Shown: positions 4,323 through 52,116 of the stretch, one piece after another
How positions within the stretch are numbered: the stretch's first letter is position 1
How the letters are laid out: each line of letters begins with the position of its first letter
Source: Dehalococcoidia bacterium
Lineage (GTDB): Bacteria; Chloroflexota; Dehalococcoidia; Lucifugimonadales; DAOUAM01
Length of the DNA stretch: 64,000 nt
Reading direction: 5' to 3'
Assembly: GCA_034433305.1 (NCBI GenBank)
Contig: DAOUAM010000089.1
Span: 3,466-67,465, forward strand
Notes under the pieces: model-generated
Database searches by the model: none
The model's input: the letters and a program-made list of their open reading frames with translations, nothing else
Told to the model about the DNA's origin: nothing
Translations under genes and position numbers: made by a program

Positions 4323-4503
4323 AAACGTGCAGGGGCGCCTGCCGCGTAAGGCGCCCCTGCTGTGGCCTGTTCGGCCGGGTATTGTCCGGCCGGGGAGGGC
4401 GCCGGCTATGGGGCCGGCGCCTGGTTATCTATGTGAAACGCTGTGAGTTGGAGTAGAATAAATAGTACCAATTAACAGCGGCTTCACAAATCCTGCTGCA
4501 CTT

Positions 4504-4671
4504 CTAGAGAGCGAAGGGCAGATCGAGTCGCACGATAGCCTGGTAGTCCCTCTTGGCCTCTTCCACCGTCGGAGCGACGGAGGGGCAATGGCGCTGGACG
4601 TTGGCCAGGTAGAGCTCGAACCCGCTGAGCTGATTCAGACCACGGATGCTATGTATAAACCGGTTCAGCAT
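4504..4671 (-). CDS. small 55-aa protein, weakly YbdD/YjiX (DUF466)-like
   Basis: Hand translation gives MLNRFIHSIRGLNQLSGFELYLANVQRHCPSVAPTVEEAKRDYQAIVRLDLPFAL*. The pattern L-x2-L-S-G-x3-Y-x3-V-x-R-H-x-P...P..EE resembles the DUF466 core. It falls below the 60-aa track cutoff and sits in an AT-rich spacer. Confidence 0.3.
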   Translation of the reverse strand: MLNRFIHSIRGLNQLSGFELYLANVQRHCPSVAPTVEEAKRDYQAIVRLDLPFAL

Positions 4672-4763
4672 TTTGGTCTACACCTCCTGTGCTGTGAACT
4701 GTCCCGCCGGGAGTGCTGCTGCGCCGGCGTGACTTGTTCCACAGTTTTGATTATCCCTCTTAG

Positions 4764-4793
4764 ATGACATCATGTAAAGAGATATAGTATAAT
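4764..4793 (+). promoter_or_regulatory. sigma70-like promoter upstream of the LysR-family gene (-35 ATGACA, 18-bp spacer, -10 TATAAT)
   Basis: ATGACA at 4764..4769 and a perfect TATAAT at 4788..4793, about 45 nt upstream of the TTG start at 4837. Confidence 0.45.
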
Positions 4794-4800
4794 AGAGGCC

Positions 4801-4815
4801 ATCAGAGATAATGAT
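4801..4815. promoter_or_regulatory. dyad ATCA-N7-TGAT (LysR-type T-N11-A-like box)
   Basis: The sequence atcagagataatgat lies between the putative -10 and the LysR start codon, a position typical of autoregulatory LTTR sites. Confidence 0.35.
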
Positions 4816-4836
4816 AGTCACTGGGAGGCAAGAATT

Positions 4837-5739
4837 TTGGAGCTACGCGAGCTGAGAAGTTTTTGCGCGGCGGCCAAGCTGAGGAGCATATCCAAGGCAG
4901 CGGAGTACCTGGGAATCGGGCAGCCCACGGTCACCATGCACATCAAGAAGCTGGAGGAAGAGCTGGGGGTGATGCTGTTCGACAGGATCAAGCGGCCCAT
5001 CCAGCTTACCCTATCGGGCGCCACGCTGGCGCGTCTGGCCACCCCTCTGGTGGAGGGCATAGACGCTCTGGCTGCCAGGACAACGCTGGCCGAAGCCGAA
5101 GGCCCGGTCTACATTGCCGCGCCTCACGACATTATCCCCCACACGCTCCTGAGAGTAGTGAGGGCCTTCCGCTCTCTCTATCCCAACGTCCACCTGCGCA
5201 TCCGCTCCGGCCTGAGGACGGACGTGCTGCACATGGTGGCGGAGGGCGAAGTAGATATTGGCATCGTGCCTGGCCCTGAGAAAAGTCCCGCGTTCGACTT
5301 CCTGCCCATGTTCGGGTACGAAAGAGTGCTCATCACCCCCCTGGGCCATCTCCTCACCCAGGAGCCTCTCAGGTCACTGGACCAGATCGCCCGCTGGCCT
5401 CTCATCCTCATGGGACCGCGGACCTATACGCGGACACTGCTGGAGACCGAGTTCCGACGCAAGGGCCTGAGCTACGACATTATCATGGAGTTGGGGGACA
5501 TGGACACCATCAAGCGCTATGTCTCCCTGGGCATGGGTGTGTCCGTGGGGCCCAGTCTGGCCATCGAGCCTGAGGACGAGGAGCAACTGGGCGTCCTCAG
5601 CATGGCGAACCTGCTGCCGGTGGAGCAGGCTGGCATCGTGGTCCTGCGGGGCAAGACCCTCTCCACGCCAGCCCAGAACTTCATCAAGGTGATGCGCGAT
5701 ACCCTTATGCCGGCCCTGCCGGTCGCCAGCAGGAGATAA
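4837..5739 (+). CDS. LysR family transcriptional regulator
   Basis: TTG start. The N-terminal wHTH is MELRELRSFCAAAKLRSISKAAEYLGIGQPTVTMHIKKLEEELGVMLFDR, followed by a substrate-binding domain of about 200 aa. Confidence 0.9.
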   Translation: MELRELRSFCAAAKLRSISKAAEYLGIGQPTVTMHIKKLEEELGVMLFDRIKRPIQLTLSGATLARLATPLVEGIDALAARTTLAEAEGPVYIAAPHDIIPHTLLRVVRAFRSLYPNVHLRIRSGLRTDVLHMVAEGEVDIGIVPGPEKSPAFDFLPMFGYERVLITPLGHLLTQEPLRSLDQIARWPLILMGPRTYTRTLLETEFRRKGLSYDIIMELGDMDTIKRYVSLGMGVSVGPSLAIEPEDEEQLGVLSMANLLPVEQAGIVVLRGKTLSTPAQNFIKVMRDTLMPALPVASRR

Positions 5740-5861: not shown

Positions 5862-6854
5862 TCACTTCCTGACGCCGACCAGCCTGGCCGTCACCAGTTG
5901 CCGGTGGTCGTAGTAGGGCCTGCGGGCACAGGTCACCAGCGTGATGGTAGCCTCGTCAGAGTCGTAGAGGGTCAACTCGTCCTGGTGGACTACTCTGGAC
6001 GATACAGCCTGGTACAGGTATTCTCCGTCCTCACTGTTGAGGATGATATAGACTGGCGTCCCGTTGACCAGTAGCTGAGGGATTTCGGGCAGCCTGTGAA
6101 AGACGTTGCCTTCTCCTTTGAAGGGGCTTTCCAGGTGGCCGAAAAGCCAGCCGTTGCCAAGCTCTCCGGGGTTGGCCGTGACCGGGATGTGGCCGACGAC
6201 GTGCTTGGGGGTCTCGTATTCCTTGCGGCCATTGCGCTCGATGATGGCCAGAGGCTTGACAGGCGAGTCCACGTCTATAAGGGGAATGCGGATGCGCACC
6301 CCGGCCGACCTGTCGCCGTGGGCCAGCCCAACGTCTGCGGGGGTCACGGGCCTGTAGCCCTCGGGCAGGCCGCGCTCCTGGGGCACATAAACATCCGTGC
6401 CGGCCCAGAGCGGCTGGTGCCAGTCCTTGGGATGGATCAGGTACCCGGGATATATAGATGCATAGCTGCTAGCCGGGAAGTCCAACGCATCAGGCCCTGC
6501 CTGTGGGGCCTGGGAGCCTGGCTGCCCGGGGGATGGCTGGGCCTCGTGCTCCGGTGGCGTGACGCCACCTTCAGGGGAAGAGTGGGCCGAGGCTGGTGGC
6601 TGAGGCCATTGCTCCCAGGCACCAGCCCCGACCGGTACGGGCAAGGAGGGTACGGGGCCTTCTATGGAAACGTTAAGCTTATCAAGCTGTGCGCCAGTAT
6701 AGGCCCCGTAAGCGTGGTAAGCGCCGACGCCAAGCAAAAGCAGCAGGCCGGTGAAAACCAACACCAGGCCTATGATTCCGCTGAGACGTCCTTGACCTCG
6801 GACTGCTGTTATCGGCACCGTCTTTCCCAAAGCAATCGTTACCTGCTGCCCCAC
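5862..6854 (-). CDS. sortase-family transpeptidase, N-terminally membrane anchored with a Pro-rich linker
   Basis: TM segment IIGLVLVFTGLLLLLGVGAY. The catalytic region has WLFGHLE (His) and ITLVTCARRP (TLxTC Cys), followed by Arg (LVTARLV). Confidence 0.8.
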   Translation of the reverse strand: MGQQVTIALGKTVPITAVRGQGRLSGIIGLVLVFTGLLLLLGVGAYHAYGAYTGAQLDKLNVSIEGPVPSLPVPVGAGAWEQWPQPPASAHSSPEGGVTPPEHEAQPSPGQPGSQAPQAGPDALDFPASSYASIYPGYLIHPKDWHQPLWAGTDVYVPQERGLPEGYRPVTPADVGLAHGDRSAGVRIRIPLIDVDSPVKPLAIIERNGRKEYETPKHVVGHIPVTANPGELGNGWLFGHLESPFKGEGNVFHRLPEIPQLLVNGTPVYIILNSEDGEYLYQAVSSRVVHQDELTLYDSDEATITLVTCARRPYYDHRQLVTARLVGVRK

Positions 6855-7004
6855 CTCTTCACAACCCTTGAGTCAGCCGGCGGCTTTATATGGCAGGAGA
6901 ATGAGTGGCTAAAGTCAGTCTAACAGACCGGGGAGATAGCCGCCAACTGTGCTTGTGGGACCCCTCCAACGAAGCCCGCTCTCACCCAGGGTGCCCAGCC
7001 CGAA

Positions 7005-7217
7005 TCAGCGCACGCGAGGAGAGTGCATCGCCCCGCTGGCGATGGGTTCGTTCAGGTATACATCGCCATTACGGATCTTGATGTTGAACCCGCACTCCGG
7101 ATTGCTACATACCCACGCTTTATAGTGGATCGGCGCACCCTGGCTTCCGAAGTCGGATAAAGGTAGCAAATTCCCACTAAGACACCTGCGGCACTGTGGC
7201 CAAGTATTCTGCTCCAC
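7005..7217 (-). CDS. small C4 zinc-ribbon protein (hypothetical)
   Basis: GTG at 7217 lies 6 nt after GAGGAGG. The product MEQNTWPQCRRCLSGN...WVCSNPECGFNIKIRNG has CxxC...Cx4C. Local G+C is visibly lower than in the neighbouring genes. Confidence 0.5.
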   Translation of the reverse strand: MEQNTWPQCRRCLSGNLLPLSDFGSQGAPIHYKAWVCSNPECGFNIKIRNGDVYLNEPIASGAMHSPRVR

Positions 7218-7294
7218 TGATTCCTCCTCTAATTCCACCCCACTTGGGTAAGGGCGCGGCAAGTATAGCATTATGATATGAGATTAAACAAGTC

Positions 7295-7903
7295 CTATTT
7301 AGGTGTTCCCTCGCCCGACCCGCTGCCCAGTGTCACCGACGCCAGTCGCTGGTAAATGGCCCCATCGGGCTTCAGGATACTTTTCATCAGGCTGACCGAG
7401 CCTACCTCTATGGGCACCCTGGGGCTGGCCCACGCTGACATCAGCGCCCGCTCCGCCTCGCGTCTTTCGGCGGGAGGAGTCCCCTCCTTGATGCGCCCTA
7501 TGGTAAGGTGCGGCTGGAAGCCCCTCTCCTCCCTGGGGAAGCCCAGTGCCTCCAGGGCTGCCTCCACGTCCCGCTGAAGGGAGCGCAGCGGCCCTACATC
7601 CCCTTCGATGCCCACCCACAAGACCCTTGGCGCCGAGCGCTCCGGGAACACGCCAGCGCCGGACAGCCCCAGCACGAAGGGCGTGTGAGCGCTGGCGACG
7701 CGGGCCAGGGCACTGGTTATGGCATCCACCTGGGCCACCTGGACAACGCCCAGGAACTTCAGAGTCAGGTGCACGCCCTCGGGCCTCACCAGCCTGACGC
7801 CGCGCAGCCTAGCCCGCGAAAGGGCCTGCACCAGCTCCCCCAGGGCTTCCCTGGCCTGAGTGGAAAGCTCTATGGCAACGAAAGCGCGCACCTGCTCCGT
7901 CAT
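7295..7903 (-). CDS. thpR: RNA 2',3'-cyclic phosphodiesterase (2H phosphoesterase, LigT/ThpR)
   Basis: Two H-x-T-x motifs are present: VHLTLKFLG and PHLTIGRI. Its start overlaps the mug stop (ATGA). Confidence 0.85.
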   Translation of the reverse strand: MTEQVRAFVAIELSTQAREALGELVQALSRARLRGVRLVRPEGVHLTLKFLGVVQVAQVDAITSALARVASAHTPFVLGLSGAGVFPERSAPRVLWVGIEGDVGPLRSLQRDVEAALEALGFPREERGFQPHLTIGRIKEGTPPAERREAERALMSAWASPRVPIEVGSVSLMKSILKPDGAIYQRLASVTLGSGSGEGTPK

Positions 7904-8433
7904 TGGCGTTTCAGCTCATCTCTCAGGTCCTTCAGCCGCCTGTACCAGGAGGCCAACTCGTCCAGGGAAGTGCTGGCGTTGGCCGCGCTGGGGCTTGGCA
8001 CAAGGAACACCTTTGAGCCTCCGATAGCGTGCGGCTGAAGACCTGTGCGTGGTGCCTCCTCCACCTCCTCCGCGTACCTGAGGTAGCTGCGGTAGGCCGT
8101 GTACCCATTGAAGCAGACTATGCGCGGCTGGGACTGCTCCAGCTTGGCCTGGAGGACCGGCGCTCCCTGGCGGAAGTCGCTGGCCCTGAGTTCAGAGGCG
8201 CTGCGGGTAGGGCGCTTCACGATATCGGTGAAGCCAATCCCCTGCTGCAGCGCCATCCAGTCCCTGCTGGCATCCAGTGGCCAGGCCAGCAGCCCAGCGC
8301 GGTTGATGGCCGGCCAGAACCTGTTGCTGGGAGAGGCGAAGTAATGGCCTACCTGCGCCGAGTACAGCCCCGGGTTAATGCCCACGAATACGATGTCCAG
8401 CCCTGGGGCGAGGTAGTCGGGCAGGGTATTCAT
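7900..8433 (-). CDS. mug: G/U mismatch-specific DNA glycosylase (Mug/TDG family)
   Basis: DIVFVGINPGLYSAQVGHYFASPSNRFWP contains the GINPG motif. Length is 177 aa. Confidence 0.85.
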   Translation of the reverse strand: MNTLPDYLAPGLDIVFVGINPGLYSAQVGHYFASPSNRFWPAINRAGLLAWPLDASRDWMALQQGIGFTDIVKRPTRSASELRASDFRQGAPVLQAKLEQSQPRIVCFNGYTAYRSYLRYAEEVEEAPRTGLQPHAIGGSKVFLVPSPSAANASTSLDELASWYRRLKDLRDELKRQ

Positions 8434-8702
8434 CTGCCACCCCTATGCCGGTGAACACATGCCCTCAAGCACAAGTTTAAAAGAATTACCATGGTTTAAA
8501 CAAGCGGTCTAACCATGTTTGCTTAGCGCAATCAGGGGAGCGTGTTACACCCTTTGCTCAATGGAGGGCCGACAGGGGCAGGTGTCCAGTGGCAGCCTGC
8601 CTCTTGACTTAGTGAGGCATAGGGTGGGAGGGTGGGAAAAGCCACGTTTGCCTCAACAAGACTGCACAGGCGTGCTGGAGGAAGACACCTACCCCTGTCT
8701 GC

Positions 8703-9536
8703 TCAGTAGGGCAGTTGGGTCTCGGGGTGCGCCCGTATGTAGTGCGCCTGGTGGACGCCGAAGTTCTCCTGGAGCTGAATGCTCAGGCCGCCATCCACCA
8801 CCAGGGCGTGGCCCGTGATGAAGGATGCCTCGTCAGAGCACAGGAACACTATGGCGTTGGCGATGTCCACGGGGCGCCCGACCCTGCGCAGCGGGTACTG
8901 GTCCTCGAAGAAGCGCAGCCCGGTGGGGTTCTGTGCCCAGCGTTCCTGCATCCTCTCGGTGACTATGTGGCCTGGGCATATGGCGTTGACCCTGATGCCC
9001 ATGGGGCCAAAGTCAGTTGCCATCTGCCGCGTGACCCCTATGACCGCCGACTTGCCCGCTTCGTACACCAGGGAGCCGGGCGCCATGAGCAGCCCGTGGA
9101 CAGACGAGATGTTCACGATGCTGCCGCCGCCGACCTTCTGCATTTCCGGCACGGCGTACTTCACGGCCAGGAAGATGGACTTCACCAGCAGCGTCATGCC
9201 GGCGTCCCAGGTCTCTTCGGACACCTCCAGGGCGCTGCCGTGGCCGCCGGCGGTGGGGCTGTAGGCGTTGTTCACCAGGATGTCCAGCCTGCCCCAGAGC
9301 TGCACTGCCTTCTCTACCATCGCCCTGATGTCGGCGTGCCTGGACACGTCGGCGTGGAAGGCTACCGCCGTGTTGCCGGCCTCGCGTATGCGCGCGACGT
9401 TGGCCTCGGCTGCCTTGGTCTCTATGTCGGCGATGAGCACCCTGGCCCCCTCCTCGGCCAGCCGGCGCGCGGTGGCGCCGCCTATCCCCAGCGCCCCTCC
9501 CGTTACAATGGCGACCCTGTCCTTTAGCCTTTGCAC
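8703..9536 (-). CDS. SDR family oxidoreductase
   Basis: Motifs TGGALGIGGATARRLAEEG (TGxxxGxG), NNAY and YEAGK (YxxxK). I prefer GTG at 9536 (MQRLKDRVAIVTGG, GGAG 8 nt upstream) over the track start 9608, but the start is uncertain. Confidence 0.85.
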   Translation of the reverse strand: MQRLKDRVAIVTGGALGIGGATARRLAEEGARVLIADIETKAAEANVARIREAGNTAVAFHADVSRHADIRAMVEKAVQLWGRLDILVNNAYSPTAGGHGSALEVSEETWDAGMTLLVKSIFLAVKYAVPEMQKVGGGSIVNISSVHGLLMAPGSLVYEAGKSAVIGVTRQMATDFGPMGIRVNAICPGHIVTERMQERWAQNPTGLRFFEDQYPLRRVGRPVDIANAIVFLCSDEASFITGHALVVDGGLSIQLQENFGVHQAHYIRAHPETQLPY

Positions 9537-17406: not shown

Positions 17407-17628
17407 AGAGGGTGTGTGAGAACTCGTTCCCCGCAGGGCTGGGACTTGGTCAAGGCAAGGCGCCTGGCCCCCTTCCTGGCCTTCCCCCACAGGGGGAAGG
17501 GAGGGTTCTCGCCCCCTCTGGGGGAGAGTCAGAGAGGGGGCTGGCCTTGCCACCAGCCCAGCATCAATATGCATCACGTCCCCACTTCTCCCGGTAAGGG
17601 CTAGAACAAGGCTTCTCACACACCCTCT
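17407..17628. mobile_element. 222-bp MITE-like element with 16-bp perfect terminal inverted repeats, nested in the dispersed repeat
   Basis: Left end AGAGGGTGTGTGAGAA (17407..17422) and right end TTCTCACACACCCTCT (17613..17628) are exact reverse complements. There is no ORF inside. The element is absent from the otherwise collinear copy at 51275..51405. Confidence 0.6.
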
Positions 17629-17636
17629 TAAAGACC

Positions 17637-17692
17637 GGGGGTGAGGTCGGCCTGGCCTGGCTGCCTCCCAGCTACCCTCAAATACCGTCCGC
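17637..17692. repeat. dispersed intergenic repeat, copy A right half (matches 51351..51405)
   Basis: gggggtgaggtcggcc.ggcc.gg..gcctcccagctac.ct.aaa.a..tccgc is shared with copy B. Confidence 0.75.
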
Positions 17693-17762
17693 TTTTGGAC
17701 TGGGTGGGAGGGCTGTCCTCTTTTATTGCTCAAGAGGCGTGATCTGTTCTTGCGAGTCCGCG

Positions 17763-17792
17763 TTGTAGCGTGTTCCCTGGGCATGCTATAAT
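17763..17792 (+). promoter_or_regulatory. candidate promoter of the rpsF-ssb-rpsR operon (extended -10 TGcTATAAT)
   Basis: TTGTAG at 17763..17768 and TGC+TATAAT at 17784..17792, about 35 nt upstream of the rpsF start. Confidence 0.4.
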
Positions 17793-17827
17793 TCTCTGAA
17801 TTCATTTGAGAGCCAGGGGAGACAAGC

Positions 17828-18124
17828 TTGGTAATCCAGCGAACACGCGATTACGAACTGGTCCTGGTCCTCAGGCCCGAGGCCAACGAAGAGGACATCA
17901 ACGCCACCATCAGCCGCGTGGACAATTTCATCACCTCGCGCGGTGGGACTATAGGAGAGCACGAGAACTGGGGTGTGCGCAAGCTGGCCTACCCCATCAG
18001 GAAGTTCATCGAGGGACACTACATCCTGACCAGGTTCAGCCTGGACCCCAGGGATGTAATTGAGCTGGACCGCAATCTCAAGACTTCAGAGGATGTGCTG
18101 AGACATCTGGTAGTAAAGCGCTGA
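17828..18124 (+). CDS. rpsF: 30S ribosomal protein S6
   Basis: TTG start. RDYELVLVLRPE...GGTIGEHENWGVRKLAYPIRK...GHYILTRF is the canonical S6 sequence. Confidence 0.95.
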   Translation: MVIQRTRDYELVLVLRPEANEEDINATISRVDNFITSRGGTIGEHENWGVRKLAYPIRKFIEGHYILTRFSLDPRDVIELDRNLKTSEDVLRHLVVKR

Positions 18125-18183
18125 TTTGCCGGAGTGAAGGACTATGCTGCAAAGGACCTCTTGCCGAAAAGGAGGTGGCTGAC

Positions 18184-18588
18184 ATGGTGGGGTTGAACAA
18201 GATGATCGTCATCGGGAACGTGGGCACCGACCCCGAGATGCGCTATACCCCCAACGGCAACCCCGTCACGTCCTTCCGGCTGGCTACCGGCCGGACCTAT
18301 ACCACCTCTGACGGAGAACGTCGCCAGGAGACGGAGTGGTTCACCGTTGTGGCATGGAACCAGTTGGCCGAGCAGTGCAACCAGTACCTTACCAAGGGCA
18401 GACGGGTGTACGTGGAGGGCAGACTCAAGAGCCGCACCTGGACAGGCATGGACGGCCAGCAGCGGTTCAGTAACGAAATCATCGCCAGCCGCGTGCTCTT
18501 CCTGGACCGGACAGCCCCTGCCACCTCCGAAGAGGATGCCGGCGTTCCCGCCGAGGACTCGGCGGAGGTCGAAAACCTCCCCTGGTAG
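18184..18588 (+). CDS. ssb: single-stranded DNA-binding protein
   Basis: ATG at 18184 lies 8 nt after AAGGAGG. The OB fold is LNKMIVIGNVGTDPEMRYTPNGNPVTSFRLAT...TEWFTVVAWNQLAE, and the acidic tail ends in ENLPW. Confidence 0.95.
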   Translation: MVGLNKMIVIGNVGTDPEMRYTPNGNPVTSFRLATGRTYTTSDGERRQETEWFTVVAWNQLAEQCNQYLTKGRRVYVEGRLKSRTWTGMDGQQRFSNEIIASRVLFLDRTAPATSEEDAGVPAEDSAEVENLPW

Positions 18589-28302: not shown

Positions 28303-28833
28303 CTAGTGGGCCTTCCTCCCGTCGTGGCTGGCCTCGCCGCTCCTGAGCGCGGAGACAGTTTCGTGGGCCTTCTCCGGGGTCATTCGGCCCATGAGGCGGT
28401 GGTCCACGCTGATGACAGGGGCCTGCGAGCAGGCGCCGAGGCAGGTATTGTACCTCAGGGTCACCTTCCCGTCCGGCGTGTCGCCCTCGCCCTCAAGGCC
28501 CAGGTCGTCCTGCACCTGCTTGAGGATATTGACGGCGCCCACCATGTGGCAGGTCGGCCCCCAGCAGACCTCCACGGTGTGCTCGCCCGGGGGCGTGGAC
28601 CTGAAGTTGGTATAGAAGGACGCGACGCCCCACACCTCGTTGAGAGTGGTCTTCATGCGCGTCGCCACTTCCTCGATGGCTTCCTGGGGGATATACCCCA
28701 GCTCGTCCTGGATAGCCAGCAGGGACGAAAGGACTGTGACGGTGGGCTGCTCCTGAGAGGCTATGGCCTTCCTCACCCGCTCGATGATGGCCTCATGCCC
28801 GGCGGTCAATGGCGCGGCCTCCGCAACTTGCAA
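28303..28833 (-). CDS. NuoE-like 2Fe-2S subunit
   Basis: TTG start. VEVCWGPTCHMVG...YNTCLGACSQAPV carries the NuoE Cys pattern. Confidence 0.9.
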   Translation of the reverse strand: MQVAEAAPLTAGHEAIIERVRKAIASQEQPTVTVLSSLLAIQDELGYIPQEAIEEVATRMKTTLNEVWGVASFYTNFRSTPPGEHTVEVCWGPTCHMVGAVNILKQVQDDLGLEGEGDTPDGKVTLRYNTCLGACSQAPVISVDHRLMGRMTPEKAHETVSALRSGEASHDGRKAH

Positions 28834-28958
28834 AAATCATCACAATCGTTCCAAAGAATGATAGCACAAAGGCGGGGTGGTCACAACTTCTATTCTTGCC
28901 TTGCCTCAGCCATGGGTAGCGGTCCAGTGTCGTGTCTTTCCCACGGCGCATAAACGTG

Positions 28959-28987
28959 TTGACGCCCTGACGACCAGCATGTAGTAT
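28959..28987 (+). promoter_or_regulatory. near-consensus sigma70 promoter (TTGACG-N17-TAGTAT) upstream of the low-GC two-gene islet
   Basis: TTGACG at 28959..28964, a 17-bp spacer, and TAGTAT at 28982..28987, about 85 nt upstream of ATG 29072. Confidence 0.5.
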
Positions 28988-29071
28988 TTAGCGGGCCTGT
29001 AGCAAGCAGGCCCTGCAAAGGCGCAGAGGCAGTACCGGAAAGAACCGCAGCACCGCTCCACGCGTAACATC

Positions 29072-29581
29072 ATGGTAGGCAGTTTCAATTCTGGACAGTC
29101 AGGTTACTCAGGAGGGGGAAAAGCATACACGACCAAGACCCTCCTCGCTGCTTGGGTGGACGAGCAGATATCCGTCATCGTCAGTCCCTCAGGGCAGCAG
29201 GGCTATTTCGTCTATTTTACGCTGGACTTTAACGCTTTCTACAATCCAGCAAGTTCGAACCCCCTGGAAATCTACAGGGAATTGGACGAGGCTATCAAGA
29301 AAGGCGATAGTGACAACACCAAGGTCAGGACGGTGCGAGAACAACTCTTGAAGACAGCGGCCAGCTATCTTGCTAGGCGCAACCCTGCACAATATCATTA
29401 CGTCATTCAGCAGGTATACGATGCCTCCCTTGAGCGTTTCGCCCCGCAGGTCTGGAGGATCAAGCTGGAGGAGTGGTCGGAAGACTGTTACGAGGTAGTC
29501 CCCACCGGCAGCGACAGGCGAGAATTCAGGGCTAAAGGCTACTCTGTGCGTAAAGAGCAGTTCGATGTAGCCATTCCCTAG
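29072..29581 (+). CDS. hypothetical protein (169 aa), low-GC islet gene 1
   Basis: Uninterrupted ORF MVGSFNSGQSGYSGGGKAYT...ISVIVSPSGQQGYFVYFTLDF...ARRNPAQYHYVIQQVY. I recognise no family. It has no obvious SD. Confidence 0.55.
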   Translation: MVGSFNSGQSGYSGGGKAYTTKTLLAAWVDEQISVIVSPSGQQGYFVYFTLDFNAFYNPASSNPLEIYRELDEAIKKGDSDNTKVRTVREQLLKTAASYLARRNPAQYHYVIQQVYDASLERFAPQVWRIKLEEWSEDCYEVVPTGSDRREFRAKGYSVRKEQFDVAIP

Positions 29582-29584
29582 GCA

Positions 29585-29941
29585 ATGAATCGCGAGAGCA
29601 GTGGTATGCCTGTGCTCCAGAACCCGCTACGAGACCTTTATCTTGTCCTCGCGGGCTTCCTCGACGAGGTCTACCGCGACTATGACATGTTGAGCGGGGG
29701 GCCTTTTGACATGGAAGGCTTTCCCGAGACGGCAAAGTATCTGCTGAAGATGCTTATGGGTACACCCGATATCTCCGAGGACGTCAAGAAGAAAGCCTCT
29801 GAGCACTACCATCTATGCCTGGCCATCTATGAGAAGTACTCGAAGTGGCGTAAAGCAGTGCCGGAGAGCGTACTGGCCAAGCACGCGGATAGCCGCAGAG
29901 ATATCGAGGAGATGGCCCTGAAGACGGCAGGACTCAATTAG
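29585..29941 (+). CDS. hypothetical protein (118 aa), low-GC islet gene 2
   Basis: It starts 3 nt after the gene 1 stop. The sequence looks predominantly helical and charged (DISEDVKKKASEHYHLCLAIYEKYSKWRK). I recognise no family. Confidence 0.55.
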   Translation: MNRESSGMPVLQNPLRDLYLVLAGFLDEVYRDYDMLSGGPFDMEGFPETAKYLLKMLMGTPDISEDVKKKASEHYHLCLAIYEKYSKWRKAVPESVLAKHADSRRDIEEMALKTAGLN

Positions 29942-29956
29942 GTTGCCGCCAGCCTG

Positions 29957-29975
29957 GAGCTGCAGGCCGCAGCTC
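29957..29975. terminator. short hairpin after the islet / between convergent genes
   Basis: gagctgc-aggcc-gcagctc, a 7-bp stem. Confidence 0.25.
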
Positions 29976-30001
29976 TCCTGAAGTACCTCCGCGGGGGGCC
30001 C

Positions 30002-31321
30002 TCACCCGAAGTCCTCCATCACCATCCGGGCGACGCGCTTGCCCATGCGGACGCTGTAGTTGGTGCCCCGGTCTTCGGGGTATATCTGGGTGGTGTTGGC
30101 CAGGTACACGCCCTTGATGGGCGTGCGGTGGTCAGGGATGCGCGCCGAGTAGTTGACGCCGATGATGGGCTGGGCGGCATCCACCCGATGGTGATAGCTG
30201 GTCTCGATCCAGGACAGCTCGAACCGGGGGTTGATCTTCTTCAGGTGGGGCAGGTACTCCTGCAATAGCTCCTCGTGGCCCAGCTTGTAGAGGTGATGGC
30301 TGGTGGCCAGGTAGTTGGACAGGTACACAATGTGCTTGCCGCCGTAGTGCTCCGGGCCGATGAAGTTGGTGTGCTCGATGACCCCCACGAAGGGTATGGA
30401 GCGGTCGGCCACGTTCAGCCAGTACACGTGGGACAGCGGATGCTTGAGCACCAGCACGATGAGCACCGCCGCCATGTAGTTGACGCCGGTGAGCTTGTCC
30501 AGATAGTCCTGGGGTAGCGACGGCACCAGCCTGGGGAACACGTAGGAAGGCGTGGTGGCTATGATGGCGTCGAACTCCCGCACCGAGGGAGCTTGCCCGG
30601 GAAGCTCCACCTCCAGGCCGGTGGCCCGCCCGTCCTCGACCGCGACGCGCCGCACGGCCGCCGAGATGTGCACCTCGTTGCCCTGCTGCCTGACCCTCTC
30701 GGCCAGGACGTCGAAGACCTCGCCGAAGCTGCCTACCGGGTAGCCCAGCAGCTCCTTCACCAGGCCCTTGCGCGACTTGACCCGTGTCTGGACCTTGCCC
30801 CAGACCCAGGCCATGCCCACCTGGCTGTAGTACTCCTCGCCAAACTTTCCCCGGAGCATCGGCCCCCAGAAGGCATCGTAGGCGCGCTGGCCGGCGTACC
30901 TGCGCAGCCACTGGGCGGCAGCCACTGGCTCGTACCGGCGCCAGTCCTTCACCCGCTGGAGGTACAGCGTCAGCAGCCCCAGGCGCACGCGGTCCACCAG
31001 CGGCAGGGGCCTGAACTTCAGCAGGTCCAGGGGCGTGACGAAGTTGTAAATCCTGCCGCCGTGGAAGGTCCCCACCCTGGACTCGATCCAGCGCATGCGG
31101 TCGCCCAGGCCGATCTCGTGGATGAGGTCCACGATATCCGTGTCGCTGGTGAACAGGTGGTGGTAGCCGCGCTCCAGCCGGGCGCCGCCCACGTCGAAGG
31201 TGGAGGCCTGGCCGCCCAGGAAGGGCGCCCGCTCGAAGACGGCCACCCTGTGCCCGCGCTTGCCCAGCTCATAGGCGGCGGCCAGCCCCGCCGCGCCCGC
31301 CCCGATGATTCCGACCCTCAC
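30002..31321 (-). CDS. FAD-dependent oxidoreductase (phytoene desaturase / amine oxidase superfamily)
   Basis: I prefer the GTG start at 31321, which overlaps the upstream stop as GTGA. MRVGIIGAGAAGLAAAYELGKRGHRVAVFERAPFLGGQ is the dinucleotide-binding motif. The track ORF start 31429 would overlap the upstream gene by 112 nt. Confidence 0.8.
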   Translation of the reverse strand: MRVGIIGAGAAGLAAAYELGKRGHRVAVFERAPFLGGQASTFDVGGARLERGYHHLFTSDTDIVDLIHEIGLGDRMRWIESRVGTFHGGRIYNFVTPLDLLKFRPLPLVDRVRLGLLTLYLQRVKDWRRYEPVAAAQWLRRYAGQRAYDAFWGPMLRGKFGEEYYSQVGMAWVWGKVQTRVKSRKGLVKELLGYPVGSFGEVFDVLAERVRQQGNEVHISAAVRRVAVEDGRATGLEVELPGQAPSVREFDAIIATTPSYVFPRLVPSLPQDYLDKLTGVNYMAAVLIVLVLKHPLSHVYWLNVADRSIPFVGVIEHTNFIGPEHYGGKHIVYLSNYLATSHHLYKLGHEELLQEYLPHLKKINPRFELSWIETSYHHRVDAAQPIIGVNYSARIPDHRTPIKGVYLANTTQIYPEDRGTNYSVRMGKRVARMVMEDFG

Positions 31322-32421
31322 TCCCGTTCCTCCTCGGCCACCGCCGCAGAGGCCAGTTCCTTCTGGCGCTGGGCTGAGAGCCGCTTTCCCGCTTGCGTCA
31401 GCCGGCGCAGCGACAGGTGCTCCGCCCACAGGAATAGCTGGCCCAGCCCTATCATGGGCAGGAGCAGCGCGGCATGCACCACGGCGGCGTACCCGCCTGC
31501 CACGGCCCGGTCCACCGATGCGAAGGGCATCAACACCAGCGTCTCCCGCGCTATCAGCTCAAACAGCCCGATGCCACCAGGGGCAGCCGGCACCGAGCTT
31601 CCCACGTTGGCGATGGCGGTAACCAGCACGCTGGCCACGGCCATCTGGCCTGGAGAGTTGTAAGTGTCGTCCAGGTCGAAGGAAAAGCCCACCATGAAGA
31701 ACAGCGACGACTCGAAGAGCCAGATGGGCACCGAAAGCAGGAACAGCGTGCCCAGGGTGCGCGGGCTGCGCAGGGGTATCAGCCCTTGCAGGAACATGGC
31801 GATGAGGTTACGTATGGCCTCCTCGAACCGCCGGGGCAGCGGCCTGAGCAGCGCCAGCGCCACCGTCGTCGTCCTGGCCGGAAAGAAGGCGAAGAGCAGC
31901 AGCGCTCCGAAGGCCGCCAGGAACGGGATACTCACCGCCGCCACCAGCAGGGGCCAGGCGACGCCAGACCTCTCCTGGAACCCCTCGGCCAGCCCCACCA
32001 TGGGCACAAACAGGGCAATGGCGAAGATGAAGAAGAGCAGCGTCAGGGCGTCCAGCACGCGCTCCACCAGGATGGTCGCCAGCGCCGAGGTCTTGCTGAC
32101 GCCCTCCCGCTCCCCCAGGTAGTAGCTGCGCACCAGCTCGCCCAGCCGCATGGGCAGCAGATTGTTGGCCATGTAGCCCACCACGACCACCGGGTACAGC
32201 CGCCGGACACTGACGCGCTTCATGTGGCGCAGCAGCACCTGCCAGCGCAGGGTGCGGAACAGCACGGACACCAGGTATAGCCCGATGCCGGGCACCAGGT
32301 AGATGTAGTTGGCATCGGACAGCGCCCGGGCCATGCGGCCAACGTCAACGGTGAGCAGGAAGAGGACCAGCAGCAGTATGCTGAGGCCGACACCCGCCCA
32401 GAACTTCAGACTCCCATTCAC
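31318..32421 (-). CDS. UPF0104 / lysylphosphatidylglycerol-synthase-TM-like (MprF flippase-like) membrane protein
   Basis: Polytopic. MNGSLKFWAGVGLSILLLVLFLLTVD...RTLRWQVLL...YMANNLLPMRLGELVR is typical of PF03706-type proteins. The start is GTG 32421 or 32451. Confidence 0.7.
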   Translation of the reverse strand: MNGSLKFWAGVGLSILLLVLFLLTVDVGRMARALSDANYIYLVPGIGLYLVSVLFRTLRWQVLLRHMKRVSVRRLYPVVVVGYMANNLLPMRLGELVRSYYLGEREGVSKTSALATILVERVLDALTLLFFIFAIALFVPMVGLAEGFQERSGVAWPLLVAAVSIPFLAAFGALLLFAFFPARTTTVALALLRPLPRRFEEAIRNLIAMFLQGLIPLRSPRTLGTLFLLSVPIWLFESSLFFMVGFSFDLDDTYNSPGQMAVASVLVTAIANVGSSVPAAPGGIGLFELIARETLVLMPFASVDRAVAGGYAAVVHAALLLPMIGLGQLFLWAEHLSLRRLTQAGKRLSAQRQKELASAAVAEEERE

Positions 32422-32460
32422 GCCATGTACCCCTTTCCCTCTCGGCAGCACCCCCTGAGT

Positions 32461-40659: not shown

Positions 40660-41112
40660 TCAGCCCACCACTGCCACTTCCTCGGGCTTGAACACCTTGA
40701 CTTCAATGGGGGCCTTGCGCTGCACGTCCCTGGCTATGCTGCCCTTGATGAGCCGGGCTATGCCCTTGCGGTCGTGGGTGTACATGGCAATCAGGTCCAC
40801 GTTCTCGCGCCGGGCGACGTCCAGGATGCCCTGGGCCACCGAGTCTGCCAGCGTGACCTCGCAGCGGCGCTGGCCGGGAAAGTCGGCCATCTGCCCCGCG
40901 ACACTCTGGAGATAGCTCATGGCTTTGGCCCGCTCCGCCTCTTCCATCTGGCTGCCCAGCAGGACCTGGTTACCTATAGTCTGGGTCCTGAAGGGCTTCA
41001 GAACGTGCAGCAGGACTACTTCCCCATCGGCGGCTATGTCGTTGCGCACCAGGGAAAGCACCCCCTCGGCCTCTCGGGACCTGTCCAGTGGTATCAGGAT
41101 CTTCCGGTACAT
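40660..41112 (-). CDS. universal stress protein (UspA family)
   Basis: MYRKILIPLDRSREAEGVL...DLIAMYTHDRKGIARLIKGSIARDV. Confidence 0.85.
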   Translation of the reverse strand: MYRKILIPLDRSREAEGVLSLVRNDIAADGEVVLLHVLKPFRTQTIGNQVLLGSQMEEAERAKAMSYLQSVAGQMADFPGQRRCEVTLADSVAQGILDVARRENVDLIAMYTHDRKGIARLIKGSIARDVQRKAPIEVKVFKPEEVAVVG

Positions 41113-41675
41113 AGGCTCCCCTCCTTCAGACTGATTTCCACCTCATTGAAAGACAGAAGCCGATGAAGCCGCACATGGCTTCATCGGCTCTTATCAGGCC
41201 TGAAAATCCCCCGCCAGACGGCGTCGCTCTGAAGGTCTGCTTTGTGCCGAGATAGTAACACCACCAGGAAAGCCCAGGTTACAGTTTGTCTATGTACCTA
41301 TCCTTGACTGAGGCAAGCTTAGCCTTTGTTCACGTATTTGTCAACATTGTGCCATATATCACAACCCTTTCCGTAATCCGACGCCCGTTGCCTCGTAAGC
41401 AATAGTCCAAATGAAGGCCGTACCTGGCGGGTTGGGACTAGTCAATTCAGACAAGCCCAAGCTGGCTCGAAGCTGGCAGGAGCAGGGGCCAGTGTCAGGC
41501 TTGCCATTCCTGCCGTACAAGGGCTGATGGGAGGTGCGAGCCTGGGCCGGCACCTCACCCACGAGGTCGGAGCGCGGGGGAAGAGGGGACAATGCCCCGG
41601 CTGGTTGAGGCCGACAGGCCGGCGGACTGCGGCGGGCCTGTGAGGGGATAGACCAAGATTGCGTGGACTGCCAGG

Positions 41676-46178: not shown

Positions 46179-46591
46179 GCTTGACAGCCCATTGTTGTGT
46201 GGTACACTGACGTTACCAGGCAGTCCATTTGCGCCTTTCAACTGTGCCGGCACTCCGGCGCGCGGCCCTGCAGCGCCGGTCCCCTTGCGCTCAAGCAGGA
46301 CGCCAGCGGCCCTTGGGTCTCTTGCTCGTGAGGCGCGTATGCTGAACCTCAGGCCAGGCCCATCTACCACCTCCACACCTCGCCCGAGCAAGGCTGGCGA
46401 GCCTTCTTCAATGGAGCCTTCCACGCTTGTGCTATGCTATCCCCTATCCATGTTATGCAGGCACAGGCCAGAGGGTATAATACTAGCGAGTCCTGGCGCG
46501 AAGTACAGGGTACCGCCTGCTCCAGTAAGGCTGGTGTGTCGGGCAGCCTGCACTTGTGGCGAAGAAAGTTGGCGAGTCTAAGGAGGATATC

Positions 46592-47761
46592 ATGAAGCTC
46601 ACACTATCTGTGATCAAAGCGGACGTAGGGTCCATAGGCGGGCACACCAAGCCTTCTGAGCGGATGCTGGAGGCGGTGCGGAAAGAGGTCGCCGACGCCA
46701 TCAAGCGGGGGCTGCTCATTGATGGCTTCGTGTCCCACACCGGGGACGACATTGCCATCATGATGTCCCACACCAATGGTGAAGGGAACAAGGATGTCCA
46801 CCAGTTCGCCTGGAACGCCTTCCTGAAGGCCACCGACATTGCCCGCAGCTACGGCCTGTACGGGGCGGGGCAGGACCTGCTGGTGGATGCCCCTTCGGGC
46901 AACGTCCGCGGCGCAGGCCCGGCGGTGGCCGAGATCGAGTTTGACCACACGCTTTCGGGCGCCAGGCCGGCCGAGTCCTTCATGCTGCTGGCCGCCGACA
47001 AGTGCGGCCCTGGCGCCTACAACCTGCCCCTGTTCCTGGGCTTCGCTGACCCCATGTACTGCGCCGGGCTGATGCTGCCCCAGATGATCAAGGGCTTCAC
47101 CTTCCACATCATAGACATGGACAACACCAAGGGCGACAGCATCATCCAGTTGAACGCGCCCGAGGACTACTACCACATCACCGCGCTGCTGCGGGACAAC
47201 GAGCGCTTCGGCATAGACTCCATCTACTCCCGCACGCACGGGATGAAGGCCGCCGCCGTCTCGGCCCAGCGGTTGCACTCCATCGCGGGCAAGTACACCG
47301 GCAAGGACGACCCGGTAGCCATTGTGCGCGACCAGGGCATCTTCCCGGCGCCGGAGGAGCTCATCTCGCCCTTCGCCAAGGCCCACTACGTGGGCGGCGA
47401 TGCTCGCGGCTCCCATGTCATGCCCCTCATGCCCGTGCCCCTGAACACGCCGGTCACGGGCCTGTACTGTCTGCCCATTGTGTCCTGCATCGGCTTCTCT
47501 GTGAGCAAGCAGGGCAAGTTCTCCGACTCTTACATAGACTTCTTCGCCAACCCTGCCTGGGACGAGGTGCGCCGGCGCGCCCAGGAGAAGGGCATCGAGA
47601 TGCGCAGCCAGGGCTGGTCTGGCGCGGCAATGCTGCCTTACAGCGAGCTGGAGTACGGCGGCTTCCGCGAGACAGTCACCAACCTGGTGAACCGCTTCGC
47701 CTTCAGGGACGGCGCCAAGGCCGAGTCCAGGGTGGCGTCCGGACACGGCGACGCCGGCTAG
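46592..47761 (+). CDS. fbp: fructose-1,6-bisphosphate aldolase/phosphatase (class V FBPase)
   Basis: ATG at 46592 follows AAGGAGG. MKLTLSVIKADVGSIGGHTKPSERMLE...GDDIAIMMSHT. Confidence 0.9.
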   Translation: MKLTLSVIKADVGSIGGHTKPSERMLEAVRKEVADAIKRGLLIDGFVSHTGDDIAIMMSHTNGEGNKDVHQFAWNAFLKATDIARSYGLYGAGQDLLVDAPSGNVRGAGPAVAEIEFDHTLSGARPAESFMLLAADKCGPGAYNLPLFLGFADPMYCAGLMLPQMIKGFTFHIIDMDNTKGDSIIQLNAPEDYYHITALLRDNERFGIDSIYSRTHGMKAAAVSAQRLHSIAGKYTGKDDPVAIVRDQGIFPAPEELISPFAKAHYVGGDARGSHVMPLMPVPLNTPVTGLYCLPIVSCIGFSVSKQGKFSDSYIDFFANPAWDEVRRRAQEKGIEMRSQGWSGAAMLPYSELEYGGFRETVTNLVNRFAFRDGAKAESRVASGHGDAG

Positions 47762-51405: not shown

Positions 51406-51693
51406 CTGTGAACCCCTCAAAGGGAAGGAAGGTGAAAGCCAGTCGGGCGCCAGGTCTTGCCGGGACTCCAGGCCGCCCCGCAGGCATCACTGAGCGAGAT
51501 ATAAACTCCAGCAGGCCCTGGCAAATCCAGCGGCCTCGTCTGGCCAGTAGCAGGTTGACATTCGAGGGCATCATAAACGTGTCCCTTGCAGAGATGTCAA
51601 GGGGAATCCGGAAGAGCCGGATATAAACGGGTTTATTAACATAGGGCCATGCGGTACAATTGGCCCAGACCGTCGGCCAAGAGGGAAACTTGC

Positions 51694-52116
51694 ATGTACC
51701 AGTTGTACACAGATGGCGCTTGCATAGGCAATCCAGGGCCGGGTGGATGGGCGGCTATCGTGGTGTACAACGGCATCTTCAGGATGCTCAGCGGCGGAGA
51801 CCGTAGCACGACCAACAACCGCATGGAGATAACCGCCGTCATAGAAGGGCTGAAGGCTGTGCCCGAGTCCTCGGATGTGACGGTGTTCAGCGATAGCCAG
51901 TACGTGGTGTTTACCATGACCAGGGACTGGAAGCGTAACCGCAACCAGGACCTGTGGAAGGTGCTGGATGACCTGGTCAGCAAACGCCATGTGAAATGGG
52001 AGTGGGTACAGGGCCACGCCGGCCACCCGCTGAACGAGATGGCGGACAGGCTGGCCCATCAGGAGGCGAGAAATGGAGTCCGCAAGAAGAGCCGGCCCCG
52101 GCCTGACTCACGTTGA
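51694..52116 (+). CDS. rnhA: ribonuclease HI
   Basis: [23 protein letters not shown]...[14 protein letters not shown]...SDSQYV...[18 protein letters not shown]. Confidence 0.9.

Follow-up and report, generated by a model that had tools for sequence, protein, structure and literature searches.

A horizontally acquired two-gene cassette inserted between an amine-oxidase gene and a nuoE-like operon in Dehalococcoidia, a candidate toxin-antidote module

Introduction

In most type II toxin-antitoxin (TA) systems, the upstream gene of the pair codes for the antitoxin, and HigBA and MqsRA are examples of modules in which the toxin comes first. The toxin-first gene order is treated as an exception (PMC6929052). 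The present work deals with a 64,000-nucleotide stretch of a Dehalococcoidia metagenome-assembled genome (MAG; contig DAOUAM010000089.1), hereafter the window, and with a small low-G+C islet (28834-30001) that harbors a cassette of two genes on the + strand, gene 1 (29072..29581, 169 amino acids) and gene 2 (29585..29941, 118 amino acids). Conserved two-gene TA-like loci showing the combination of features found in this cassette have been described (PMC8832971; PMC10440598).

The cassette shares with toxin-first type II modules of the HigBA, MqsRA and HicAB type two small, co-directional and coupled genes for cytoplasmic proteins, a patchy and mobile distribution with decaying chromosomal copies, a larger and better-conserved first gene followed by a faster-evolving second one, and replacement of the partner in distant relatives. 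Unlike these modules, the cassette has no likeness in sequence or fold to any known toxin or antitoxin superfamily, its putative antidote carries no helix-turn-helix (HTH), ribbon-helix-helix (RHH) or AbrB domain, and some relatives of gene 1 are partnerless.

The analysis reported here securely establishes a real, selected, translationally coupled, fast-evolving, dispensable and compositionally foreign two-gene cassette that was horizontally acquired by a small Dehalococcoidia clade. As to its role, we propose, with a probability of about 40%, that it could be a toxin (gene 1)-antidote (gene 2) module of the addiction or defence type. The source lineage (Dehalococcoidia / SAR202-like Chloroflexota) is uncultured and environmentally abundant and, to our knowledge, its TA and defence systems are almost unstudied.

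Results

The cassette genes are real and under purifying selection

The original prediction, made on the sequence of the window, had placed two open reading frames (ORFs) separated by a 3-nt gap at these positions, and both are present as described. At the junction (29579-29587) the sequence reads TAG-GCA-ATG and the two ORFs are in the same reading frame, which is a coincidence since in relatives the genes overlap by 4 nt and are in different frames. One split gene, or readthrough from the first ORF into the second, was rejected: none of the homologs (0) spans both ORFs and the different-frame 4-nt overlap occurs in six other loci. Public gene calls start gene 2 at Met8 (29606), giving a protein of 111 amino acids; the start at 29585 is favoured because of the family alignments and the tight coupling in other loci. 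In both ORFs the G+C content of the codon positions decreases in the order GC3 > GC1 > GC2 as in the flanking genes, a coding-like pattern. The two products are soluble, mildly acidic proteins (pI of 5.6 for that of gene 2) without membrane segment.

The nearest sequences to the window locus are L084 (FWPU01005984.1) and L083 (JGI 3300037479), both unbinned metagenome contigs. The proteins flanking the cassette in L084 are 93-97% identical to those of the window, compared with 87% for gene 1 and 89% for gene 2. Between these two sequences, the islet and its flanks are equally diverged at synonymous sites (p = 0.41), whereas nonsynonymous divergence (dN) is 2.3 times higher in the islet (p = 7e-5). 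The ratio of nonsynonymous to synonymous divergence (dN/dS) is 0.24 for gene 1 (p = 3.8e-6 for a value <1) and 0.33 for gene 2 (p = 0.008), and 0.08-0.17 in the flanks. Both genes are under purifying selection. With remote homologs, dN/dS values below 1 and confident AlphaFold models, the two genes are real.

The islet is compositionally foreign

The original prediction had judged by eye that the G+C content of the pair was lower than that of its neighbours, and the computed values bear this out. The G+C content is 0.527 for gene 1, 0.546 for gene 2 and 0.548 for the islet, which is the lowest-G+C stretch of the whole window (mean of 0.652, standard deviation of 0.030 in 900-bp windows; z ~ -3.8). 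The deficit lies mainly at third codon positions, GC3 being 0.64 in gene 1 and 0.71 in gene 2 versus 0.87-0.92 in seven flanking genes. The same trend was found in all five genomic contexts tested (5/5), where GC3 of the pair is far below that of its neighbours: it amounts to 0.46-0.53 in L083 and 0.64-0.71 in the window, for a host GC3 of 0.83-0.92. The amelioration of the codon composition of the cassette is incomplete.

The cassette interrupts a conserved gene junction

The islet is bounded on the left by a gene on the - strand (28303..28833) coding for a NuoE-like 2Fe-2S thioredoxin-like ferredoxin, the first gene of a NuoE/NuoF/molybdopterin-oxidoreductase operon, and on the right by a FAD amine-oxidase-like gene (30002..31429, - strand), which is followed by LPG_synthase_TM, PMT_2 and DUF2298 genes. 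A scan of 185,579 GTDB species representatives with the NuoE-like protein yielded 80 related loci, all from MAGs assigned to Dehalococcoidia, Chloroflexota or SAR202. As the best NuoE-like match in this set reaches only 72% identity, the window lineage has no close representative in it, its own genome and species being absent. When the 80 loci were searched by tblastn with the window proteins, the oxidoreductase operon was found in 80/80 and the amine-oxidase gene in 34/80, and gene 1 and gene 2 in 0/80. In islet-free relatives the amine-oxidase-like gene lies directly upstream of the nuoE-like gene on the same strand; in 17 related loci it ends 52-295 nt before the nuoE-like start. As this junction is otherwise tight, the islet represents in the window an insertion of ~1.1 kb whose genes lie on the opposite strand. 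The placement of the pair between conserved gene clusters, as claimed beforehand, is therefore confirmed by the adjacency of the flanks in the 17 relatives and by the absence of the pair from all 80 loci; conserved synteny with the nuoE-like operon across the lineage, which would have pointed to a core function, was not found, the association being confined to a clade of three members.

Both islet junctions are reproduced in an independent Logan assembly of SRR11582170, which argues against an assembly chimera. Flanking repeats, direct or inverted, were not convincingly detected at the window locus, and the 64-kb window contains no tRNA, Rfam family or paralog of either gene. No integrase or transposase turned up at the locus, no search aimed at integrases of the window having been made, and inspection by eye of the 60-nt 3' spacer revealed no attC-like imperfect palindrome, just a short hairpin.

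In related Dehalococcoidia, too, the amine-oxidase/nuoE-like junction repeatedly holds variable DNA. It contains a DUF6364 + PIN_3 (VapBC-type) pair in L059 (8095-8759), a DDE_Tnp_1_4 transposase with a two-component system in L013 (8293-9858), and an unrelated 101-amino-acid coiled-coil/transmembrane ORF on the opposite strand in five relatives (L040:9511-9813, and also L048, L055, L068 and L074). Other ORFs without assigned family, several of them of low GC3, occupy it in L010 (548-1501), L044 (8438-9715) and L079 (9236-9622). Like the cassette, the L059 pair is a small two-gene cassette in this variable junction; it differs in that its proteins are unrelated, its order is antitoxin-first and its PIN protein is of an established RNase fold, in contrast to gene 1, for which no fold relative is known.

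A probable single old acquisition, and decay of gene 1

Among the sequences analysed, the pair occupies this site only in the window, L084 and L083. In L083 it has the same position and orientation and shows ~40% identity to the window proteins, for 66% in the NuoE-like protein and 79% in the amine oxidase. The amine-oxidase tree places L083 as sister to the window and L084 and excludes all the islet-free relatives from this group. Because the islet carriers form one clade and the synonymous divergence of the islet equals that of its flanks between the window and L084, the simplest reading of these sequences would be a single old acquisition in the common ancestor of the three, after which the pair would have been inherited vertically as its proteins rapidly diverged. 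The horizontal acquisition of a bicistronic cassette put forward in the original prediction is thus supported by its absence from relatives, its unrelated contexts elsewhere and its low GC3, but the event was not recent and the genes are not orphans.

In two of the three carriers, gene 1 is interrupted while gene 2 is intact. The L084 copy has an in-frame TAG at codon 43 (L084:5654-5656) and the L083 copy, independently, an in-frame TGA at codon 115 (L083:1198-1200). Beyond the stop each copy is intact and keeps its family motifs, which makes the L083 stop a recent one. The two stops may be fixed or polymorphic alleles or errors of the consensus sequence. A third decaying copy, in L092, shows a frameshift and a CGA>TGA change in gene 1 and an ATG to ATA change at the start of gene 2. 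Altogether, gene 1 is disrupted in 3/7 complete loci of the close subfamily (L084, L083 and L092) and intact in the window, L082, L085 and L100. A patchy, mobile distribution accompanied by decaying chromosomal copies, as used to recognise type II TA modules, is therefore observed.

The two genes remain coupled in unrelated contexts

Wherever the context of a gene 2 relative could be read, a gene 1 relative immediately precedes it (window, L082-L085, L092, L099, L100 and L101). The stop and start codons overlap as ATGA in six loci and are separated by 3 nt in the window and L084. A coupled, co-directional gene pair kept across genomes, another hallmark of type II TA modules, is thus present. 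Apart from L083 and L084, which share the site of the window, the cassette relatives adjoin unrelated genes such as those for QueF, an ABC transporter and an epimerase. The pair lies beside QueF and an inositol phosphatase in L082, after a membrane-anchored protein in L085 and L092, beside an ABC-2 permease in L099 and next to a MNT-type nucleotidyltransferase in L101; it is also carried by L100.

Distant relatives of gene 1 were found in L090, a diderm-type genome with TonB-type outer-membrane proteins, and in L097 (930-4911), where a group II intron reverse transcriptase (RVT_1+GIIM) and a Hypoth_Ymh (PF09509) gene immediately precede the gene 1 relative and its 112-amino-acid partner. The L097 segment is a small mobile or variable region, as all its genes have a low GC3. 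In both cases, a helical partner of 112-120 amino acids is encoded 8-10 nt downstream of the gene 1 relative, and these two partners share mutual homology (E = 3e-8), but a relationship with gene 2 was rejected (hhalign probability <1%). Partner swapping is described for TA systems (PMC8832971; PMC10440598), and the different partner in L090 and L097 parallels it (PMC8832971). TA genes were also seen near relatives, namely the MNT-type gene in L101, a PIN pair on the P0010 contig and MazE in L090. No tblastn hit to the cassette was obtained in INPHARED (50,697 phage records) or PLSDB (72,556 plasmids).

Two further contigs deserve mention. L089 (197-1452) encodes a very distant gene 1 relative (184 amino acids) followed by an overlapping gene for a 237-amino-acid protein whose C-terminal half resembles by eye a response-regulator receiver domain (LILVVDDNES...DG...); if real, this domain would hint at signalling control of the partner. 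In L096 (726-1124), an ORF begins at 726, 3 nt after gene 1 (P0011), and runs off the contig end after 133 codons read; by eye it is like the C-terminal part of a UvrD-type helicase (RAKGREFEYVYL...ERRLFYVALTRAK).

Gene 1 and gene 2 belong to two small protein families

Both proteins matched nothing but themselves in word-indexed searches of 5.8 billion proteins. When 1.84 billion cluster representatives were searched exhaustively with phmmer, 49 further proteins were revealed, one of which (P0048) is a repetitive spurious match: there are ~42 relatives of gene 1 (23-49% identity) and 6 of gene 2 (31-45%), none of them spanning both genes. A profile search with a 43-sequence alignment added only a few more unnamed proteins, and all relatives of both genes are unnamed metagenome proteins. 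Judged by these searches, the genes are not true orphans, each having a small family of remote relatives, and gene 1 and gene 2 represent two undescribed protein families.

The gene 1 family is characterised by the motifs GY..K..LA.W.DE, YF.WF, SSNP..IY..LD.AVK, K[IV]...R..L and F.PQ.WR..L and by the C-terminal motif [DE]E/EF...V[IV], P64 being invariant. A conserved polar surface comprises N54, N58, S62-N63-P64, D72, K84, R89 and E151. The gene 2 family shows RDLY.LL.G.LDE.Y....LSGGPF and a C-terminal R..I......LL motif.

Comparison of the window proteins and of every family member with Pfam, NCBIfam, PADLOC and PHROGs gave nothing recurrent, in agreement with the earlier statement that neither product resembles a family that can be named. 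PADLOC-DB v2 (5,027 models) gave only single, scattered, single-member matches (E >= 0.01) without recurrence, and PHROGs one match to one family member (E = 0.0026), nothing convincing. None of the 43 gene 1 members (0/43) was assigned by Pfam, NCBIfam or PADLOC to a recognised toxin superfamily (RelE/ParE, MazF/CcdB, PIN, HipA, Fic/Doc, GNAT, RES, HEPN, Zeta etc.). The PDC candidate two-gene defence systems of PADLOC-DB resemble the cassette by their small, uncharacterised proteins and their location in variable genome regions; they differ in that no family member matches them beyond scattered non-significant hits. Sequence-profile searches of the PDB returned nothing for either family.

Predicted structures

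The AlphaFold2 model of gene 1, built on the family alignment, is a confident alpha/beta structure (predicted local distance difference test, pLDDT, of 92.4; predicted template modelling score, pTM, of 0.86) whose elements follow the order b1-a1-b2-a2-a3-a4-b3-b4-b5-b6 after a disordered N-terminus of 16 residues. The original prediction had read a Gly/Ser-rich N-terminus, a beta-rich segment and a helical C-terminus. This was partly wrong: in the model the N-terminus, which is not conserved, is disordered, helices form at residues 24-37 and in the middle of the protein, and beta structure, not helix, dominates the C-terminal third. The helical nature ascribed to gene 2 agrees with its AlphaFold2 model, a generic bundle of 4-5 helices (pLDDT 82).

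The top Foldseek matches of gene 1 include alpha/beta proteins of similar size, those of the Xre-RES TA modules and KptA/Tpt1. These matches are non-significant and the cassette has no Xre-type partner. An ADP-ribosyltransferase (ART) fold of the KptA/Tpt1 or RES type was considered to be noise (E 0.4-3.9, TM 0.27-0.31, root-mean-square deviation of 8.5-11 Å), and with no conserved Arg or His on strand 1 the gene 1 family lacks the ART R/H...S/Y...E triad.

Promoters and hairpins around the cassette

The nuoE-like gene (-) and gene 1 (+) diverge from an intergenic region of 238 nt (28834..29071), which is of low G+C content and 95% identical in L084. This region contains on the + strand, 84 nt upstream of the gene 1 start, the sigma-70-type promoter-like site TTGACG-N17-TAGTAT (28959..28987). 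This site had been called near-consensus; it is present as claimed but, with 9/12 consensus positions, the qualification is generous. Both hexamers are unchanged in L084 and three substitutions fall in the spacer, a suggestive conservation that would be consistent with function and that, for two sequences, is not statistically significant. The transcript predicted from this promoter would start at the base of a 10-bp stem-loop (28991-29016, + strand), at the predicted 5' end of the cassette mRNA. The 5'-UTR hairpin noted earlier is indeed real (-17 kcal/mol, z = -2.9). Its L084 counterpart bears three substitutions and still reaches -15.2 kcal/mol (z = -3.5), and the changes are compatible with the structure, a U.G pair becoming U-A and a G>A change pairing with a formerly bulged U.

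A second promoter-like site, TTGTGA-N17-TATCAT with an extended-10 TG (28858..28886, - strand), faces the nuoE-like operon from the low-G+C DNA and is kept in L084 except for one spacer change. As the insertion cut the operon off from its former upstream neighbour, this putative site (28886..28858) may now serve as the operon promoter. Between gene 2 and the convergent amine-oxidase gene lies a short G+C-rich hairpin (~29956-29976). The small downstream hairpin of the original prediction thus exists. Its stability does not exceed that of shuffled sequences (z ~ +1), for which reason a function as a terminator was rejected; it also lacks a U-tract and is weaker in L084. A conserved cassette-borne promoter or hairpin was sought across the contexts of the relatives and none was found, the upstream regions being unrelated and the elements lineage-specific.

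A 2.2-kb scan gave six sigma-70-like promoter matches, all of which (6/6) fall inside the low-G+C islet (28858-29398), for 0.5 expected from shuffles; some lie inside gene 1, on both strands. Such a cluster is typical of AT-richer foreign DNA and may cause antisense or spurious transcription.

Discussion

The proposal of a toxin-antidote module is based on the pairing of the genes with overlap, the better-conserved first and faster-evolving second gene, the replacement of the partner, the gene 1 knock-outs with an intact gene 2, the fast evolution of the pair and the presence of TA or mobile genes in the neighbourhood of relatives. The original prediction had considered the architecture compatible with a toxin-antitoxin, abortive-infection or effector-immunity pair, expressly without proof, and these features lend that suggestion circumstantial support. 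According to this proposal, the cassette would have entered the junction of the amine-oxidase gene and the nuoE-like operon, in opposite orientation, in the ancestor shared by the small clade. It would be transcribed from its own sigma-70-type promoter into a message stabilised by the 5'-terminal stem-loop. Gene 1 would be the active and potentially harmful effector, a soluble alpha/beta protein, and gene 2, a small helical bundle produced in a fixed ratio from the same mRNA, would bind, neutralise or control it. We infer toxicity, neutralisation, promoter use and hairpin function from the anatomy of the locus.

Several points weigh against this proposal. Most type II antitoxins carry a DNA-binding domain. 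Gene 2 and its six relatives are devoid of any Pfam domain, with no recognisable HTH, RHH, AbrB or Phd/YefM DNA-binding domain. Homology to a known toxin, antitoxin or defence protein was found for no family member in Pfam, NCBIfam, PADLOC and PHROGs, and Foldseek gave no significant fold match in the PDB or BFVD (PDB for both gene 1 and gene 2). Some gene 1 relatives stand without a partner gene (P0010 contig, L088 and L096), which is awkward if gene 1 is always toxic. The recurrent gene 1 knock-outs would fit any dispensable gene equally well, and the TA neighbourhoods carry little weight because TA genes are common in such genomes. Finally, no vehicle was identified, the phage and plasmid collections and five IMG/VR scans being free of any copy. 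It is unlikely that the gene 1 stops of L084 and L083 are tolerated or read through and so keep a harmful gene conditionally off. Somewhat doubtful, if worth stating, is the bolder idea that the pair might found an undescribed TA or anti-phage family, with an effector fold not represented in the PDB, a partner swapped among sublineages, an AT-rich codon signature, foreign to the host, that is kept through a long residence, and repeated silencing by nonsense mutations in natural populations.

The strongest competitor, in our view rather unlikely, is a non-toxic accessory module. Gene 1 would then be a small enzyme or a binder of a ligand or nucleic acid and gene 2 its adaptor, chaperone or regulator, the pair bringing a niche benefit, spreading horizontally and being lost when unneeded. 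The purifying selection on both genes and the retention of the islet at one site across the clade agree with such a role, as do the well-defined conserved polar surface of gene 1, its partnerless relatives and its lack of similarity to known toxins. It fits less well with the inactivation of gene 1 in 3/7 complete loci where gene 2 is intact, with a protein evolution that is very fast compared with the flanks, with the persistence of a foreign codon composition and with neighbouring genes that have no consistent functional theme.

It is improbable that the two genes were left behind by a larger mobile element (a prophage, an integrative element or the cargo of a transposon), which they would have served for instance in anti-defence, exclusion or regulation, and are now decaying. 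The low GC3 in every context, the decay in L084, L083 and L092, the group II intron reverse transcriptase and Hypoth_Ymh of L097 and the DDE transposase found at the junction in a relative are compatible with such an origin. However, no relative was found in the 50,697 phage records, the 72,556 plasmids or IMG/VR, no PHROG match is convincing, the window locus shows no flanking repeats or tRNA and no integrase or transposase turned up there, and dN/dS values below 1 indicate selection in the host lineage.

Reversed roles, with gene 1 as antitoxin or immunity protein and gene 2 as toxin, would restore the canonical antitoxin-first order of type II modules and make the solitary gene 1 relatives comparable to orphan antitoxins. 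We consider them very improbable. Cells with a gene 1 stop next to an intact gene 2, as in L084 and L083, would not survive an active gene 2 toxin; of the two partners gene 1 is the commoner and the better conserved, as is typical of toxins; gene 2 has the higher dN/dS; and gene 1 has no DNA-binding domain. The idea that the two proteins serve the adjacent NuoE/NuoF/molybdopterin-oxidoreductase operon in a core role, as accessory subunits or assembly factors, suggested by their proximity in the window, L084 and L083, is effectively refuted by their distribution, as the pair is missing from 80/80 related operon loci, lies on the opposite strand, has unrelated neighbours elsewhere and has lost gene 1 in 2/3 syntenic loci. 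An artefact, in which ORFs would have arisen by chance from non-coding or chimeric MAG sequence, could have been feared from the MAG source and the self-matches that were alone returned by the word-indexed search of 5.8 billion proteins, and is refuted by the homologs, the dN/dS values below 1, the coding-like GC1/2/3 pattern, the confident models and the junctions found again in the Logan assembly and in L084.

Should gene 1 be a toxin or defence effector, as in the toxin-antidote proposal, a new fold and a new family would be added to the TA and defence repertoire. Should the cassette be merely a dispensable accessory pair, the finding would be ordinary, orphan two-gene islets being common in metagenome-assembled genomes. 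This one is unusually well defined, and as a concrete candidate for a novel toxin or defence fold it can be put to the test. Whatever its function, the locus is a clean natural case of a small foreign cassette entering a conserved gene junction, where it separates an operon from its upstream neighbour, possibly supplying the DNA of the present operon promoter, and, with a rate of evolution several times that of the surrounding DNA, retains its foreign composition.

Other features of the window

The longest ORFs of the amine-oxidase gene (30002..31429) and of the LPG_synthase_TM gene (31318..32451) overlap by 112 nt (31318-31429). The true start of the amine-oxidase gene is probably located downstream of the GTG at 31429, since the Pfam matches begin near residue 39.

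Milder low-G+C patches (0.565-0.584) are present elsewhere in the window, on the left of the islet at 4401-5150, 6751-7500, 8301-8850 and 17551-18400 and on its right at 40901-41600, 46401-46800 and 51451-52000. These patches could correspond to further accessory DNA.

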